From Accumulibacter sp. (GTDB lineage: Bacteria > Pseudomonadota > Gammaproteobacteria > Burkholderiales > Rhodocyclaceae): a stretch of 64,000 nt of DNA. Of this stretch, positions 26,905-33,934 are shown piece after piece. Made by a program: the position numbers and the translations under genes. The first letter of the stretch is position 1. Every line of letters starts with the position of its first letter. A model generated the notes under the pieces. It did not search any database. It was not told the DNA's origin and was given only the letters and a program-made list of their open reading frames with translations. The DNA is taken from the NCBI RefSeq assembly GCF_036625275.1, contig NZ_JAZKUD010000006.1:11716-75715 (forward strand), read 5' to 3'.

Positions 26905-28233
26905 TCAGACAAAACCGATGCCGACTTCGGAGAGACCCACAAGGTCGATATTGGCCGCGTTCTGAGCAGTTTCAGCAGCCAGCACGCCCAGGCTGGCCGG
27001 CGTATACGCGCCGCTTTCGAGCAGGCTGGTGAAGAAGGCCAGCGTGTCGGGCGAGGGCGCGCTGCCGATCACGTTGGTGTATAGCAAAGTCACCACCGCC
27101 TGGTGGCTGGCGCCGGCGCCGAGCCGGGCATCCAGCGCAAGTTGCATCAGGCTTTGGTAGGACATGCCGCCATCGAGCAGACCAAGCCCGATGCCGACAT
27201 AGGCAGGATTGTCGACTGCGGCTGCGCCGAATACGGCCCCCAAGACTTTGGCGGTGGTGCCGGCATGGCCGTCGATGTCGATCGCCAGCTTGTGGTCGGC
27301 AAAATGCAGGCGTTCGATGCCGTACAGGAAATCGTGGCCATCTTGGCCGGCAGTGTCGCTTACCGACCAGTGACCGTTCGTCATGGCTAGCGCATAGTGG
27401 TCGGCAGGGCCGTTGTAATGGGCGGTGTCCTGACCGATGCCACCGCTCAACTGATCGTCGCCGGCCAGGCCTTCGAGCACGTCGTTACCGTTGCTGCCGG
27501 TCAGGGTATCGGTGCCGCGAGTGCCCATCAGATACTGCCCGCGGCTACCCTGGCCGAGTGCCTTGCCCAGGCCGTCACCCCCATAGAGAAACCTCAGCGC
27601 TGCAATATCGTAGGGCGAATAGTCGCTATAGGGCCCGCCGGCATGGTTATAGGACATCAGTGTGTTCGCCGTGTGGTCGTCGGCCTCGCTCAGCCGCACA
27701 CTGCCCGAAAAGGGGTGCTTCAACCCCAGCGCATGGCCCAACTCGTGCAGGAGCACCTCGTAGCCGGCCGAGCCGGCAGCGGGGGCGTGGTTGCTGGCTG
27801 CGAAGTCGGCGTTGTCAAGGTAGATGTAGGCGTCCGCCGTGTACGTAATGATCGTGTTGTCGCCGTCGAACGAGTAGTGGCGGCGCGTTGAGCAGATGCC
27901 CGCGGTGCTGCTGCTGGTGATGATGTCGGCGGCAGCGAAATAAAGATCGGCCACAGCGCCGTCGGCGGTGGCCACGAAGGTGATGCCGGTGATCTGTGTC
28001 AGCCGGTTGAGGGCCTGCACCGCGGCCGCCTGTTGCGTGGCATTGAAAGCCACTGGTGCAGCACTGATCGTACTGCCGATGTCGCGGCTGTTGCCGTCGT
28101 TCAGTGCGAAGGTATAGAAGAGCGTGTTGCGAGCGGGAGCCACCCAGTTCCAGCCGGGGCCGCTATCCAGGAGGGCATCGATATGGATCAGGCCGGACGC
28201 GGCCTGCGTATTAATGTCGGTGACGGTGGTCAT
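26905..28233 (-). CDS. Serralysin-like (M10) metzincin with RTX-like nonapeptides and DUF4214-like C-terminus
   Basis: HELGHALGLKH, Met-turn TLMSY, DIAAL..LYG and GG.G.D-like repeats; no Sec signal. Confidence 0.85.
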   Translation of the reverse strand: MTTVTDINTQAASGLIHIDALLDSGPGWNWVAPARNTLFYTFALNDGNSRDIGSTISAAPVAFNATQQAAAVQALNRLTQITGITFVATADGAVADLYFAAADIITSSSTAGICSTRRHYSFDGDNTIITYTADAYIYLDNADFAASNHAPAAGSAGYEVLLHELGHALGLKHPFSGSVRLSEADDHTANTLMSYNHAGGPYSDYSPYDIAALRFLYGGDGLGKALGQGSRGQYLMGTRGTDTLTGSNGNDVLEGLAGDDQLSGGIGQDTAHYNGPADHYALAMTNGHWSVSDTAGQDGHDFLYGIERLHFADHKLAIDIDGHAGTTAKVLGAVFGAAAVDNPAYVGIGLGLLDGGMSYQSLMQLALDARLGAGASHQAVVTLLYTNVIGSAPSPDTLAFFTSLLESGAYTPASLGVLAAETAQNAANIDLVGLSEVGIGFV

Positions 28234-28258: not shown

Positions 28259-29830
28259 TCAAGGGGGGCTCAAATCGCCAGCATCGTTAGGCACTACGAA
28301 CCGTTTTCGTTGCTGCTTCATCTTGTACATGTGTTCATCAGCGTCGGCGATGAATTCCTCCAGCGTCGAGTGATGTTCCGGATTGAAGTCGGTCACACCC
28401 AAACTGATGCCCATGGCGAAGGGCTTGTGTTCCTGAATGCCAATTGCGACGATCCGATCCTCGATGCGTGCAAGCAGGCGGGAGACGGCTTCTTTCTCAC
28501 AGTCGTGGAAGATCAGCAGAAACTCGTCGCCCCCGAGCCGCATCGCAACATCGCCGGCACGAATCGATGTTGACAGGACTTCAGCCGTCTTGCGTAACAA
28601 CCAGTCGCCTTCGGAGTGGCCAAATCGATCGTTGGTCGTCTTCAGACCATCAAGGTCAGCAAAACAGAGGGTGAGTGATCGACGATCGCGTTTGCAGCGG
28701 GCCATCGAATTTTGCAGAATCATCAATCCGGCGCGTCGATTGAGCAACCCGGTCATTTCGTCAAAGGTGGCGAAATGCTCAAGCGCCGCATGTGCTTTCT
28801 TGAGATCGCTGATGTTGGTCATGCCAAGGACCAGCACCTCTCGCCCGGCAAAGCGGATTTGGCGAACGGAAACCAGGGCATTGGTCACGGTGTTCTGTAC
28901 CGTCAGGAGAATGATCTCGTAGTCATTGAGAGACTCGTTGTTGATGATTTTTTCAAGAAACAGTCGGTTCGCATCAAAGGTGTCATCGAGATAGGTTTGC
29001 AAATGACTTCCGGCAAGTTGCCGAACGGTGACTCCGGTCAGTTCAGCGGTTTTCTGGTTGGCATCCAGAATGGTCAGATTCTTGTTATCGACCAGCAGCA
29101 GTGCGGTTGGACTGACGGAGAAGAGGTGACGCATGTCCTCTTCCTTCTGTTCAAGTGCCAGCATGTCTTGACGGATGCGACGAGTCACCGGCGAAAAAAT
29201 AAACAGGGCTTCGAGCGCCAGTACCAGCAGGGTGAGTACCATCAAAGCCAGTTCAACCCAGCGTGCCACATCTAGCTTGCGCTTGGCCTCCTGATCGTAG
29301 CGGAATACGATTTCATCCATACCTTGCAGAAAACTGGACTCGTGTTCGCGAATGCTCTGGATATCCTGGTCGACGGGCTGAGCCTGCGCAGAGGTTGCCA
29401 ACAGGTTTCTTGTCGCGGCAATGATCGCCTGATGGTGTGGGTCGATGCGGTTGTAAAGGGCGATGACCTCTACACTGTTTTTTCCCGGTAGCCCAAGTTC
29501 GGTGTCGCCGTGCAGCAGTCCTTGGTGTGAGCGCTTCCAGAGTTCCAACGTCTCTGCAAGTTGCTGGCGGTAGCTTGTCGCTGACTCGGTTGCCTGGGCA
29601 TTGGCCACGTAGAACGCGTTCTTGGTGATTTTTTGGCTCAGCATGCGCTGTCGGCCGGCAATGTTGACGACGCGCGAGTCAGATGTCTGATCGGCAATCA
29701 GGTGCTGTACCACGATCTGTGACAGGATGGTTAGCAAGGCGATCAGCGATAGCGCCGTGATGTAGCGTTTGCGAAGCTGGCCGGCTGTCAAGACAGCATT
29801 CAATGCGGGGATTATTCTGTTCTTCGGCAT
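28259..29830 (-). CDS. Membrane diguanylate cyclase (PilJ/NarX-like periplasmic domain, PAS, GGDEF)
   Basis: TM-VNIAGRQRMLSQKI-TM, PAS-like segment, DEMTGLLNRR, RxxD I-site (RAGD) and GGDEF. Confidence 0.92.
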   Translation of the reverse strand: MPKNRIIPALNAVLTAGQLRKRYITALSLIALLTILSQIVVQHLIADQTSDSRVVNIAGRQRMLSQKITKNAFYVANAQATESATSYRQQLAETLELWKRSHQGLLHGDTELGLPGKNSVEVIALYNRIDPHHQAIIAATRNLLATSAQAQPVDQDIQSIREHESSFLQGMDEIVFRYDQEAKRKLDVARWVELALMVLTLLVLALEALFIFSPVTRRIRQDMLALEQKEEDMRHLFSVSPTALLLVDNKNLTILDANQKTAELTGVTVRQLAGSHLQTYLDDTFDANRLFLEKIINNESLNDYEIILLTVQNTVTNALVSVRQIRFAGREVLVLGMTNISDLKKAHAALEHFATFDEMTGLLNRRAGLMILQNSMARCKRDRRSLTLCFADLDGLKTTNDRFGHSEGDWLLRKTAEVLSTSIRAGDVAMRLGGDEFLLIFHDCEKEAVSRLLARIEDRIVAIGIQEHKPFAMGISLGVTDFNPEHHSTLEEFIADADEHMYKMKQQRKRFVVPNDAGDLSPP

Positions 29831-29960
29831 GCGCCTACTCTAATCGAAAACCGGTTGCCGATAATGCGCTACCCTCGCCGCATCGAAGCCATTGTTCGAT
29901 ATCGGTCTGGGCCAGGCATCGGTGATGGCAAACCCTCTGGATGAACCACAGAGGTCTGGC

Positions 29961-31997
29961 TCAGGGTTTGTCGCCAGCGCTGACGGCCAGCCAGAGTTCA
30001 TAGTGGCAAGGTCGTATCGCTGACGAACCCTCAAAGCCGTGCATGTATTTCACCGGCACGTCAGGCAGACCGGCATGGGCCAGGGCGGCCGCTGCCGCTT
30101 CTGCACCGCCCTCCTCGGCTTTATGAAAATAGCGAATCTCGTTGGCGGATGGCATCCTTTCGGGCACCATCACTTCAGTCTGCGGGACGATGAAGCCCGC
30201 TGCGCGCAACGCCGGCGCCAGCCGCTGCACCAGCGCGCTGCCCGCTGGCGAACCGACCTGGGGGTACAGGCGCCGACCGGCCGGACACGACTGGAGTGCC
30301 GTCGTCGCCTGCACAACGCTCTGGTACGAGCGATTGGCATCGGAAAGCAGGGCGCTTGCCTCGGCGGCACGGTCGGGCTTGTTGCCTTCGAGCAACTGGG
30401 CTGCCGCCAGCGCTTTTGTGGCGGCTTCCAGGGCACTGGCGCGTTCAGAGTCTGCTGCCGACGCATTGCGGGTTTCCCACTTCGCCACCGACAAGGCTTG
30501 CCTGGCTTCTTCGTTTGCTGTCAGAGCCCACCACAACAAGCCCATGGCGATGACCAGGAGCACCATCAGCCCGATCAACAACCGCCGCGTACGGCGCGAT
30601 GCGGCCAACGCATCTTCGGCGCGAGCACGCTCCAAGTCCGCGCGCTCTTCGGCCAGCCTGGCGGCAGCAGCGCGCTGCTTGAACAGTTCGAGTTCGGCGG
30701 CTTCCTTCTCACGTTGCAGGTGGCCCGTGGCTTCGGCTTGCTGCTGCGCCAGTTGCGCGCGGGACAGCGCGACGGTGGCCAGCCGGTCATGGACCAGCTC
30801 GACCTGGTCTCCTTGCTCGGTGATTTCGATACGCAACAGCCGTCGGTTGACCAATTCGCGCAACGCGGGCAGTAGTGTTGCGTCGACTGCGGCCAAAGGA
30901 TAGGGTCTGCGCGTACCGTCGATGGTGATCAGGTTGGCCTCGATCCAGCTTGCTGCCGAAATTCGCTGCGCATCGGGCAGGTCGGCAAAGGCCTGGTTGT
31001 AGAAGCGGTCGAGGATCTGCGCGCCCCGTGCCTCGAGGTCGCTGACATCGAGCTGCAGGCCTGGCGGCCGTTTCGCCAGGCGGTCGGCGTTGAGACTCGC
31101 GCACACCAGGCTCAGCAGCGCCGGTTCGATTCGACGCGATTCGCGCGCCACCCGCATGGCACTGGATTGGGCCATCTGGCAGCCCAGGAACTCGACGATG
31201 CGCTGTGCCGAGGGGGCGTCGACGAGTTTGCCGCCGGTCTTCTGCACCGCATCGAGCGCCTGCTCCCGTGACATCGGCAACAGTCGGTAGCGATTCGGTC
31301 CCAGGCGTGGGATAAGGTCGGTCCAGGTTTCGAGTTCGGGCAGAAAGTCCTCGCGCAGAGCGATCAGGAAGCGGTAAGGCTGGCCATCCAAGTCGAGGTG
31401 GTCGAGCAATTCGTCGTGCTGGTCCAGACGTGCGGTCACCTGCGGTGGCACGCGATTCTCCAGCAGATCGCCGAGTTGTTCGAAGGTCTGCCGGCGCAGA
31501 TGTTCATCAGGCTGAAGGGTGAAGATTTCCTCGAACTGGTCGAGCACAAAGACGATCGTCCAGCGCCGGCCAGTGGTGTCGAACAGGTGTTGTCGGCGGT
31601 CATGCAGACGCTCCCACAGTGCGGCCACGTCATCGCCTGCGGCCGTGTCGCTGTTGTCGACGGTGTTTGAGCGAAGCCGAGCCTGGACGACGGCATCGTT
31701 GAGTGAGCGCAGTAGCTGCGATGACAAGGCCGGCGTGCCCGCACCGTGTTCGACGCGTCGCAGCGGCACGGGCAACAGGCAACGCTCGCGCAGTAGCGGG
31801 AACAGCCCGGCCAGTAGCAGCGAGGTCTTGCCAAGACCGGACTTGCCGAAAAACACACACACGGGCGTTGTCAGCAGGCTGCGCTGCAGTGCCTGCACAT
31901 CGTCATCCCGGCCATTGAAGAAGCTGCTCGCGCTCTCGGTGAACGGGTCTAGCCAGGGCCAGGGGTTCTGCGCATCGAGATGCCCGCGCTCAGCCAT
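29961..31997 (-). CDS. STAND-class NTPase (nSTAND1-like) with coiled coil, TM helix and LytR_C-like C-terminal domain
   Basis: NPWP.L..F, Walker A GKSGLGKTS, Walker B VLDQFEE, LREDFL, ELVHD and TM LLIGLMVLLVIAMGLLWWAL; start at MAERG. Confidence 0.8.
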   Translation of the reverse strand: MAERGHLDAQNPWPWLDPFTESASSFFNGRDDDVQALQRSLLTTPVCVFFGKSGLGKTSLLLAGLFPLLRERCLLPVPLRRVEHGAGTPALSSQLLRSLNDAVVQARLRSNTVDNSDTAAGDDVAALWERLHDRRQHLFDTTGRRWTIVFVLDQFEEIFTLQPDEHLRRQTFEQLGDLLENRVPPQVTARLDQHDELLDHLDLDGQPYRFLIALREDFLPELETWTDLIPRLGPNRYRLLPMSREQALDAVQKTGGKLVDAPSAQRIVEFLGCQMAQSSAMRVARESRRIEPALLSLVCASLNADRLAKRPPGLQLDVSDLEARGAQILDRFYNQAFADLPDAQRISAASWIEANLITIDGTRRPYPLAAVDATLLPALRELVNRRLLRIEITEQGDQVELVHDRLATVALSRAQLAQQQAEATGHLQREKEAAELELFKQRAAAARLAEERADLERARAEDALAASRRTRRLLIGLMVLLVIAMGLLWWALTANEEARQALSVAKWETRNASAADSERASALEAATKALAAAQLLEGNKPDRAAEASALLSDANRSYQSVVQATTALQSCPAGRRLYPQVGSPAGSALVQRLAPALRAAGFIVPQTEVMVPERMPSANEIRYFHKAEEGGAEAAAAALAHAGLPDVPVKYMHGFEGSSAIRPCHYELWLAVSAGDKP

Positions 31998-33387
31998 TGC
32001 CGGCCTTGTGGAAGCGCCCGACAAGCTCCTGCAGCTTCCTGATGTCTTCATCGGACAGCTGGCCCTGCGGGGCGTGCATGAGCTGGATGCGCCGGAAATC
32101 ACTCGTGAAGCCGTTGAAGATGCGTTCGTAGCCGCTGCGATCCGGGGCCGTGGCGTCGATGCCAATGGGCAGCACGAATGCGTCGTTGACCCGCATCGCC
32201 CGCATGACGGCCTTACGCCATTCCTCCCAGAATACTCCTTCGCGACGGCGGTCAGCCTGTTTCGACAGCACCGGCACGAAGAAGTCACAATGCTCGATAG
32301 CGTCGTCGATACGGTCGGACCAGTCGTCGCCGGCGATCAGCTTGCGCTGGTCGAACCAGACGTCGCCGAACTTGAGTTCGACCAGCGCATCGGCGACACG
32401 CCGCGCCGCTGCGCGATCCTCGCTGGCATAGCTGACAAATACCGAAGGACTGGCCCCAGCCGCCGCGCCAGGCTTTGCCACCACCGGCACGGCATGCCTT
32501 GGTGCAGGCCCGAGCAGCGCCTCAAGCTCGGCAACGAATTCCGATGGTGACCATGGAAACACTGTCGCGTTGGGGTTGAAACGCGCGAGGAACGAATTCA
32601 GCCCAGGGTCCTGAGCGTCGGCGGCGAAGAACTCCATTTTTTTGTCCTGCGAGGACAAGCGTGCCTCGTTGGCCAGACGCAGAAAGCCGCGTCCCAACCA
32701 GTCCGGCAGGTTGCAACCAAGAAACAGCAGGTCGCGGCTGCGCATTTCGGTCAGCAGGTTGGGCGCGCGCCGCGTGCCTTCCTCTTGAAACTTGTAGAAG
32801 TACTCGAGGGCATCTTCCTCGTGGATGGCCAGTCGCGTGCCGGTAGCGCTACGCCCCAGTGGAAAGAACACTCTGGTCGTACCGGCGCACGCCGGTGAGA
32901 CGTCTACGGGTTGCGAACTGTCGGCGTTGGGCGAGTAGGCCCCCACCTTGACTGCATCGGCACCGAGCAGGCGCTGCAGTGCGTCTACGAGCAGGTCATC
33001 GGGCGTCAAGCAGATGTAGAGGTCGAATACGTGCAGGCGGGCAAGCCGATCGAGCAGCGGAGACGCCGTGATGCCCGACGCTGCGTCCTTGACGATAGCC
33101 GAAACCGAGCGCCGCACGCGCTCTGTACTCACGTCGCTGTGATCTGCGAGCACCTGGGCCACGCCGCGATGCAACAGCCAGCCACTGCTCCCGGTTGCTG
33201 CCGGCAGTATGCTGCCGTAAGTGGCGAGCAATTGGTCCACGACGACGCGGTAAAACGGTAAGTGGGTGCATTCGCCATCGGTAGTGACGTTCTCCACTGT
33301 CACCATCTCGGGTCCGAGCACCGGCACGACGCAGTGTGCGCGCAGCGCTTCAGCAAGGCTCTGTCGGCCCGCGAGCAGACGATCCAC
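31990..33387 (-). CDS. SIR2-like domain + C-terminal TIR (TIR_2) protein (start uncertain)
   Basis: VVPVLG and LLFLGC.LPDWL (SIR2_2-like); SVFVSYASED..VWFD...GDDW..I..CDFFVPVLS..EEW (TIR). Confidence 0.8.
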   Translation of the reverse strand: MDRLLAGRQSLAEALRAHCVVPVLGPEMVTVENVTTDGECTHLPFYRVVVDQLLATYGSILPAATGSSGWLLHRGVAQVLADHSDVSTERVRRSVSAIVKDAASGITASPLLDRLARLHVFDLYICLTPDDLLVDALQRLLGADAVKVGAYSPNADSSQPVDVSPACAGTTRVFFPLGRSATGTRLAIHEEDALEYFYKFQEEGTRRAPNLLTEMRSRDLLFLGCNLPDWLGRGFLRLANEARLSSQDKKMEFFAADAQDPGLNSFLARFNPNATVFPWSPSEFVAELEALLGPAPRHAVPVVAKPGAAAGASPSVFVSYASEDRAAARRVADALVELKFGDVWFDQRKLIAGDDWSDRIDDAIEHCDFFVPVLSKQADRRREGVFWEEWRKAVMRAMRVNDAFVLPIGIDATAPDRSGYERIFNGFTSDFRRIQLMHAPQGQLSDEDIRKLQELVGRFHKAGNG

Positions 33388-33624
33388 GTCAGGGATGACC
33401 CGATAGCCAAGGGATGACAGCGATGGCCCGCATGCTGGCTTTCTGATACGTGAAAAGGGTAGAAAATCAACGCTATGTCGGAAAGTATCGCGCGTCACGA
33501 CAGCCGCAGTCAATCGAATCATGAGCCTGTGGGTTGACACTTCCCGGACCCTGGTCATCGATCCAAAGAAGGATCACCCGCACGGTCAGGATCATGAAAT
33601 ATCACATTCAGGCGGCAAACAGGC

Positions 33625-33653: not shown

Positions 33654-33674
33654 GGATTCCATAGTCTCACTGAA

Positions 33675-33758
33675 AAGGGCAAACCCGTCGAAAGGCGGGG
33701 ACGCAAAGTCACCGATCTAACGGAAACGGCATGTTTCCCAGGATGGCGGGGCCGCCAG
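33675..33758 (+). ncRNA. Cyclic di-GMP-I (GEMM) riboswitch
   Basis: GGCAAACCCGTC-GAAA-GGCGGG-GACGCAAAG..CCGATCTAA...ATGGCGGGGCCGCC fits the consensus: GNRA tetraloop, receptor-type P2 and closing P1. Confidence 0.9.
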
Positions 33759-33934
33759 GCTAACGGAGACAGCGTCCGGACAAATTCCCCAGTCTTGGTC
33801 GCAGTCGATCCACCTCCAGCCCGTCGGATCTCCAGAAAGTTTCATCTCTGCCCAACGGTTGACCTTGCACCAGCCCGCAGTTTTTGCGGCCAGGCCGTGC
33901 GTCTTTTTGGCGCCAGCGACAAGGAAAACCGACG

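Follow-up and report, generated by a model that had tools for sequence, protein, structure and literature searches.

The window analysed here is a stretch of 64,000 nucleotides from Accumulibacter sp. (contig NZ_JAZKUD010000006.1), and the subject is a pair of overlapping genes at its positions 29,961 to 33,387. An earlier reading of the same letters, referred to below as the original prediction, had described the pair as a SIR2-like/TIR protein and a membrane-anchored STAND NTPase, and as a candidate immune or envelope-sensing system. Gene 1 encodes the SIR2-like and TIR domains, and gene 2 encodes the NTPase, which is followed by a predicted transmembrane (TM) helix and a C-terminal outer domain. 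Both genes lie on the minus strand with an 8-bp overlap, as had been predicted and as the sequence and translations bear out. The features of the locus, in coordinates of the window, are the following:

31990..33387, minus strand: gene 1, SIR2-like and TIR protein (P0001), 465 residues, GTG start; from the open reading frame (ORF), its translation and the starts of homologues
32518..33387, minus strand: SIR2-like domain, residues 1-290, predicted to be catalytically dead; from Foldseek fold matches and replaced motifs
31993..32451, minus strand: TIR domain, residues 313-465; from Pfam TIR_2 and profile matches to SPARTA TIR-APAZ and AbTIR
32221..32223, minus strand: codon of Glu389, the predicted catalytic TIR glutamate; invariant in 26 homologues, placed by alignment with TIR-APAZ
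31990..31997, minus strand: overlap of the gene 1 stop and the gene 2 start, 8 bp, ATGGCTGA; from the sequence
29961..31997, minus strand: gene 2, membrane-anchored nSTAND1 NTPase (P0002), 678 residues; from the translation
30774..31964, minus strand: nSTAND1 NOD module, residues 12-408; Pfam PF20703, E 2e-29
31824..31847, minus strand: Walker A, GKSGLGKT, residues 51-58; S53, G54, G56 and K57 invariant in 27 homologues
31527..31541, minus strand: Walker B, DQFEE, residues 153-157; D153, Q154, E156 and E157 invariant in 27 homologues
30597..30773, minus strand: charged helical, coiled-coil-like linker, residues 409-467, judged by composition only; length varies from 38 to 80 residues
30519..30581, minus strand: single predicted TM helix, residues 473-493; the only hydrophobic segment (Kyte-Doolittle 2.57), with RRTRR just before it and a position conserved in 27 aligned homologues
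30300..30518, minus strand: predicted periplasmic helical linker, residues 494-566; poorly conserved (mean pairwise identity 0.32), 54-81 residues long
29964..30299, minus strand: LytR_C-like C-terminal domain, residues 567-678 (folded core about 567-670), with Cys571 and Cys664; from AlphaFold and weak profile matches
33484..33513, minus strand: promoter-like site, TTGACT-18-GATACT, about 97 nt upstream of the gene 1 start; from a consensus scan only, which is not evidence of function

Around 31990-31997 the sequence is ggcaATGGCTGAgcg, where gene 1 ends with GGC AAT GGC TGA (...AGNG-stop) and gene 2 opens with ATG GCT GAG (MAE...); the two genes are probably translationally coupled. An alternative, longer ORF of gene 1 extends to an ATG at 33558. 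The GTG at 33387 was kept as the start because the close homologues of gene 1 all begin with MDRLL at that position, and because the promoter-like site (33513-33484) falls downstream of the ATG, inside the longer ORF. The searches returned more than 140 homologues for gene 1 and 1575 for gene 2.

The SIR2-like and TIR domains of gene 1

The N-terminal part of gene 1 matches SIR2_2 (PF13289) below the Pfam gathering score (residues 164-250, E 0.017, 15.6 bits vs 24.5), and a member of the gene 1 family in the same genus (G003, 35% identical) exceeds that cut-off with 52.5 bits. The AlphaFold model of gene 1, made with 26 homologues, has a mean predicted local distance difference test (pLDDT) score of 82 and a disordered linker at residues 296-311. 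In a Foldseek search of the PDB the model best resembled ThsA, with proteins of three species among the matches, together with KomBC and the DSR2 SIR2 domain (E 5e-10 to 1e-7, probability 1.0), and because of these matches the SIR2 fold is taken to be real. The PDB sequences searched with a profile of the SIR2-like domain gave no match; only the fold comparison succeeded.

The hallmarks of the fold were compared by aligning the gene 1 family with canonical SIR2_2 proteins from related genomes. The Rossmann/GAG NAD-binding loop, LFVGAGVS in the canonical proteins, is VPVLGP(E/D) in the gene 1 family; the catalytic Asn motif TTNYD is LTPDD, with Pro at the place of the Asn (Phe or Cys in distant members); and the catalytic His motif KxHGD is PLGR or LLGS, with Leu at the place of the His. 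The GAG loop, Asn and His, which are the features of an active SIR2 NADase of the ThsA/DSR type, are thus all replaced in every aligned member of the family. This confirms the degenerate state that had been predicted for the domain, and it gives no support to the role of NAD-consuming effector that the original prediction had associated with SIR2. In the homologue alignment, H189, D192, W230 and E252 of the same domain are invariant, and because the hallmark losses are family-wide while these other positions stay fixed, the SIR2-like domain appears to be a conserved pseudo-enzyme and not a decaying domain.

The C-terminal part of gene 1 matches TIR_2 (PF13676) well above the gathering score (residues 316-416, E 4e-19, 69.6 bits vs 28), and at the profile level it also matches the TIR-APAZ chains of SPARTA (short-Argonaute) systems and AbTIR. 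The TIR-APAZ segment 'REGVL-KELAVA' aligns with 'REGVFWEEWRKA' of gene 1, and E389 falls on the Glu of KELAV, which we take to be the catalytic E77 of TIR-APAZ. The Glu pointed out earlier in the motif GVFWEEW is therefore present as its second Glu, the invariant E389. From this alignment the TIR domain of gene 1 is predicted to retain the catalytic glutamate of helix alpha-C, and it looks catalytically competent.

The NTPase of gene 2, its membrane helix and its outer module

The protein encoded by gene 2 matches nSTAND1 (PF20703) above the gathering score (103.9 bits vs 27.1). The module spans residues 12-408 and so leaves no space ahead of it for an effector, and the gene opens directly at the STAND NTPase, as had been described. 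No match to ParA, CbiA or MinD was found in gene 2; its NTPase is nSTAND1. The coiled coil predicted to follow the NTPase is present as a charged helical stretch, and its coiled-coil character comes from composition only.

The original prediction also had one TM helix and, beyond it, a periplasmic domain at the C-terminus, which agrees with the one hydrophobic segment of the protein and with the charge of its flanks: among 63 relatives the mean number of K+R is 5.6 on the N-terminal side and 2.7 on the C-terminal side, with N exceeding C in 58 of them (positive-inside rule). The gene 2 protein is thus predicted to be a bitopic inner-membrane protein, N-in/C-out, with an extracytoplasmic C-terminal domain.

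The TM helix is common to the clade. Among the homologues of at least 520 residues (n=106), a strong hydrophobic 19-mer was sought after the NOD, and it was found with a basic patch before it in 93, including the WD40 and TPR proteins of Methylomonas, Methyloglobulus and Nitrosomonas. The segment is also present in nearly all of the loci of the genome survey described below, and every protein checked has exactly one. The original prediction had placed the TM helix and the periplasmic domain in the position of TPR or WD40 repeats, as a replacement for them; this does not hold, since the WD40 and TPR relatives have the TM helix as well. WD40 propellers follow the TM segment in 18/63 loci, and the other parts found there include WD40 with ankyrin, MORN, LytR_C-like domains and a helical module of ~600 residues. 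In a tree of the NOD module, the LytR_C-like endings fall in at least 3-4 separate clades interleaved with repeat-bearing clades, and the well-supported branches force at least 7 changes of the outer module (LytR_C-like, WD40, TPR-like, ankyrin, MORN). The common TM helix and these repeated swaps point to a chassis made of the NOD and the TM helix, on which the outer module is exchangeable, and the window protein is one of several variants of this chassis and not a unique replacement of cytoplasmic repeats.

Two of these variants are recorded separately. The ~600-residue module after the TM segment, with a weak TPR match or none in Pfam, is present in L039, L040, L046 and similar loci, whose proteins have ~1055-1075 residues, and is predicted to be an uncharacterised extracytoplasmic helical module on the NOD-TM chassis. 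The predicted outer region of the relatives L085 and L103 contains either WD40 together with ankyrin repeats or MORN repeats, which are unusual modules for the periplasm.

The outer domain of the window protein is modelled by AlphaFold as a well-folded unit of ~100 residues (pLDDT 91) with the order beta-alpha-beta-beta-alpha-beta-beta. In this sense the LytR_C-like domain of ~100 residues described earlier stands as a domain, while its similarity to LytR_C is weak and below the cut-off. Taken alone it gives DUF7224 at E 4e-4 and LytR_C at E 0.05, both sub-threshold; the outer domains of 21 relatives give LytR_C in 11 (E<10, best 0.0024), DUF7224 in 5 and SPOR in 3, all sub-cut-off; and in the wider outer-domain family LytR_C is matched in 10/88, with a best value of 3e-8. 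The weak fold resemblances include amidase_3-type folds (the best, E 0.15) and phage endolysins. The soluble domain of the orthologue of Rv2700 (6q10), Rv2700 being a solo LytR_C protein (PMC11832169), compares with a TM-score of 0.46, a root-mean-square deviation of 4.3 and E 1.5, which is not significant. 'LytR_C-like' is a fair label, with membership of the LytR_C family putative.

Cys571 and Cys664 of this domain co-vary, with both present in 21/27 homologues and both absent in 6/27, which is the pattern expected of a disulfide. The outer-domain family comprises 1872 cluster representatives (E<=1e-3). In 62 of 88 carriers a TM or signal segment precedes the domain, and the fusion partners among the 88 are nSTAND1 (26), TIR_2 (9), ThsB-type TIR (2), ParA/CbiA (5), nSTAND6 (3) and caspase (1). 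Many members of the family are proteins of ~200-250 residues consisting of a TM segment, a helical spacer and the domain. Within the orthologous group, the mean pairwise identity is 0.54 for the outer domain, 0.65 for the NOD and 0.32 for the spacer. Because the outer domain is fairly conserved in comparison with the NOD, its conservation would suit a conserved ligand of the envelope, probably a self ligand, better than a fast-evolving phage protein.

Conservation of the pair and its proposed role

The lack of co-conservation had been set beforehand as the result that would speak against a two-gene module; what was found is that gene 1 and gene 2 are adjacent in 7/7 metagenomic contexts reached through homologues, with flanks that are all different. 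The same 8-bp overlap is kept in 5 of the 7 (L007, L008, L010, L025 and L027), one has a 4-bp overlap (L026) and in one the genes abut. The flanks contain an integrase with transposases, a RES-Xre toxin-antitoxin pair, a UvrD-like helicase, housekeeping genes, and a patatin with TPR-S in Methylomonas methanica; of these, the integrase, transposases, RES-Xre and patatin/TPR-S are neighbours of a mobile or defence type, present in some contexts and to be read as anecdotal. A genome survey covered 80 loci with nSTAND1 relatives, taken from species-representative genomes. A relative of gene 1 adjoins the nSTAND1 gene in 73 of them; it immediately precedes that gene in the same orientation in 71 and lies on the opposite strand in 2. 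The hosts belong to five or more phyla, including Proteobacteria, Acidobacteriota, Verrucomicrobiota, Actinomycetota (Mycolicibacterium porcinum) and Bacteroidota. In the genus of the window, the gene 1 family is patchily distributed, being present in 8/40 species, and the pair is adjacent in 6/6 loci where both genes could be mapped; the variant with the TM helix and the LytR_C-like domain is found only in this genome among the 40 species, the next best having 45% identity over the NOD only. The best explanation of this distribution is that the pair is a self-contained, horizontally mobile module.

The context in Methylomonas methanica (L027; CP002738.1, 1724135-1740780) is a WD40 variant with an extra gene of 205 residues that overlaps the start of the TIR gene. 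Its patatin/TPR-S surroundings may be a defence island.

Avs and bNACHT each consist of one soluble protein, which detects phage proteins inside the cell. The window pair follows the logic of Avs/AVAST and bNACHT, in which a STAND NTPase is coupled to a sensor at its C-terminus and to an effector that targets NAD or acts otherwise; however, gene 2 has no N-terminal effector, gives no PADLOC match and has a TM helix, and membership of Avs/AVAST was rejected. ThsA of Thoeris (SIR2-SLOG) is the best structural match of gene 1 (E 5e-10), with an N-terminal SIR2 fold followed by a Rossmann-like domain as in gene 1. Nevertheless, ThsA has an active SIR2 NADase and a signal-binding SLOG, whereas gene 1 has a dead SIR2 fold, a C-terminal TIR with its Glu and no ThsB-type partner. 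Membership of Thoeris was rejected on the absence of SLOG, the dead SIR2 and a TIR that is fused and not separate, with ThsB models at only E about 0.008; EACC1 was rejected on its defining features. ZorAB of Zorya is an inner-membrane defence component that reportedly binds peptidoglycan through a periplasmic part, detects perturbation of the envelope and signals to cytoplasmic effectors; it is a MotAB-like, proton-driven motor complex and has no domains in common with the window pair. In the literature, no description of the gene 1/gene 2 pair and no experimental work on it was found.

The closest relatives in design are two groups of predicted systems. Kaur, Burroughs, Iyer and Aravind (eLife 2021, PMC8195603) gave nSTAND1 its name, as an NTPase found in counter-invader systems where effector or adaptor domains are fused. 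In the portion of that paper considered here, these systems share with the window pair the NTPase family, the association with TIR, variable C-terminal repeats and a predicted immune or apoptosis-like role, and in the same portion their effector or adaptor is fused N-terminally and no TM or extracytoplasmic module is mentioned (PMC8195603). In contrast, the window pair has a separate upstream effector gene with a dead SIR2 fold, and its STAND protein spans the membrane. The second group comes from a computational preprint of October 2026 (bioRxiv 10.64898/2026.10.19.760177), which describes the ParA-based PCTM and a 'receptor-like subtype' of TIR-ParA. These have a constant cytoplasmic ParA within a type-II single-TM protein, an upstream effector gene, and outer domains of the PASTA, LytR-C, SPOR-like and TPR types, for which sensing of peptidoglycan breaches has been predicted (10.64898/2026.10.19.760177). 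The window pair appears to be of the same overall design, including the upstream TIR gene of TIR-ParA, with a different class of NTPase and a different TIR partner: ParA (SIMIBI class) and an FxsC-type TIR in TIR-ParA/PCTM, and a STAND AAA+ protein with a dead SIR2 and TIR protein here. The STAND-based pair would be an independent parallel to those receptor-like ParA systems predicted in 2026.

Here it is proposed, with a probability of roughly 0.55, that the pair is a receptor-like STAND conflict module (immune or programmed-death) that senses the envelope and switches on a TIR enzyme. The analysis shows which domains are present, which catalytic residues are lost or kept, one TM helix with an N-in charge bias, a pair that is conserved together and an outer module that has been exchanged repeatedly. 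The envelope-sensing reading is built on these observations and is supported by the same receptor-like logic having been predicted for ParA NTPases (10.64898/2026.10.19.760177), and the split transmembrane receptor activating TIR in trans, as originally put forward, would fit the anatomy of the two proteins. What the receptor binds, which way the signal runs, an NADase output and a role in defence are inferred, as follows. The outer LytR_C-like domain, stabilised by a putative disulfide, would read a conserved feature of the envelope, most plausibly peptidoglycan or a partner associated with the cell wall. A breach or remodelling of this feature, for example through phage entry, lysis or another attacker, would alter the oligomeric state of the receptor, and ATP-dependent oligomerisation of the NOD in the cytoplasm would bring together the TIR domains of the gene 1 protein, itself predicted to be cytoplasmic, for which the dead SIR2 domain may serve as adaptor and scaffold. 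The assembled TIR domains would then hydrolyse NAD+, leading to growth arrest or cell death.

Several points weigh against this proposal. The neighbours are only housekeeping genes in 3/7 contexts. The topology of gene 2 is a prediction, made from hydrophobicity and charge bias, and a periplasmic event would have to reach the NOD through a single helix; in addition, the WD40 or ankyrin array beyond the membrane that the same topology implies for the relatives is unusual. The window protein reaches 15 bits for LytR_C (PF13399) against a gathering score of 22.2, the fold search with the outer domain gave no significant match in the PDB or BFVD, and the function of LytR_C itself is unknown (PMC11481543). 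Among the collections of known systems, PADLOC 2.0 has no model for gene 2 and matched gene 1 at the level of the TIR domain only, and NCBIfam 20 has no fitting model for either gene.

Other readings share much of this evidence. With the same parts and the same TIR output, the outer domain might merely fix the complex to the wall, the septum or the pole, and the trigger would then be sensed in the cytoplasm or within the membrane, through the NOD, coiled coil or TM helix. LytR_C domains reportedly bring proteins into contact with one another and direct them to places where the wall is synthesised (PMC11832169), hypervariability is not seen in the outer domain, and the coiled-coil and TM parts are always present, all of which suit an anchor; however, in relatives the same place is taken by WD40, TPR, ankyrin or MORN modules, with which STAND proteins usually sense, and the module has been exchanged repeatedly, a diversity that an anchor does not need. 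We regard this reading as unlikely, if a serious contender. The module could also be a death or dormancy switch unrelated to phages, which responds to envelope damage or cell contact in flocs and biofilms or acts against competitors (type VI secretion system, lytic enzymes). To such a switch we give a rather small chance: the conserved outer domain suits sensing of the own cell wall and many carriers are metagenome-assembled genomes from environmental samples, but the sequence level offers nothing to tell it from phage defence.

It is improbable that the TIR domain makes a signalling nucleotide instead of depleting NAD+, with the signal read by the dead SIR2 fold or by an unlinked effector. 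The closest structural match of gene 1 is the signal-activated Thoeris effector ThsA, and the invariant polar residues H189, D192 and E252 of the dead SIR2 could bind a ligand; nevertheless, no third conserved gene accompanies the pair in the 7 contexts, and the SIR2 fold cannot be the NADase effector of such a system because its catalytic residues are lost. A last reading starts from the placement of the pair in this genome, with a PilJ-PAS-GGDEF gene on one side and a minor-pilin operon headed by a riboswitch on the other, and would have the module work with the adjacent type IV pilus and cyclic di-GMP (c-di-GMP) genes, for example as a guard of a phage receptor linked to the pilus. The link to a type IV pilus locus in the original prediction was rejected, as the 7 other contexts show no pilus genes beside the pair; moreover, a strain 98-99% identical lacks the GGDEF gene at this site. 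The pilus neighbourhood is coincidental, and a working link with it is hardly credible.

The envelope-sensing reading can be extended, tentatively and with the odds somewhat against it, to the whole STAND clade as true transmembrane receptors, with an exchangeable outer sensor, a TM helix, a cytoplasmic NOD and a separately encoded TIR enzyme, for which a dead SIR2 fold would be the adaptor. In function this would be the bacterial equivalent of Toll-like receptor logic, in which sensing outside is coupled to TIR signalling inside; here it would respond to a breached cell wall, either ahead of an invasion or in its course. If the widespread pair does signal from the periplasm to a cytoplasmic TIR enzyme, NLR-like ATPases can act as transmembrane receptors, a simple two-gene system is at hand for studying how envelope damage is turned into NAD+-based arrest, and a role is found for the dead SIR2 fold and for the poorly understood LytR_C-type domain.

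Neighbouring genes in the window

A c-di-GMP-I-GGC riboswitch aptamer (RF03167) is present at 33669-33760 on the plus strand, with 66 bits against a gathering score of 59. It precedes the minor-pilin/pilY1 operon and is divergent from gene 1. On the other side of the pair, a serralysin-like metalloprotease with RTX calcium-binding repeats is encoded at 26905-28233 (minus strand), between prpD and the GGDEF gene, and it is kept in the near-identical strain.

In the four relatives in the genus that have homologues of the GGDEF gene (51-54% identity), none of the other genes of the window is nearby, and the insertion site is not defined by them. In the near-identical strain (98-99%, contig L117), the order is prpD, RTX protease, STAND and TIR, without the intervening PilJ-PAS-GGDEF gene (28259-29830, minus strand). 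The two strains differ here by an indel at 28266-29966, which is 1.7 kb in the window and 53 bp in L117, and the GC content of this stretch is 0.55, compared with about 0.61 around it. The indel junction lies within the final codons of the STAND gene, so that the proteins of the two strains end in ...SAGDKP and ...NAGQKSYPPN.

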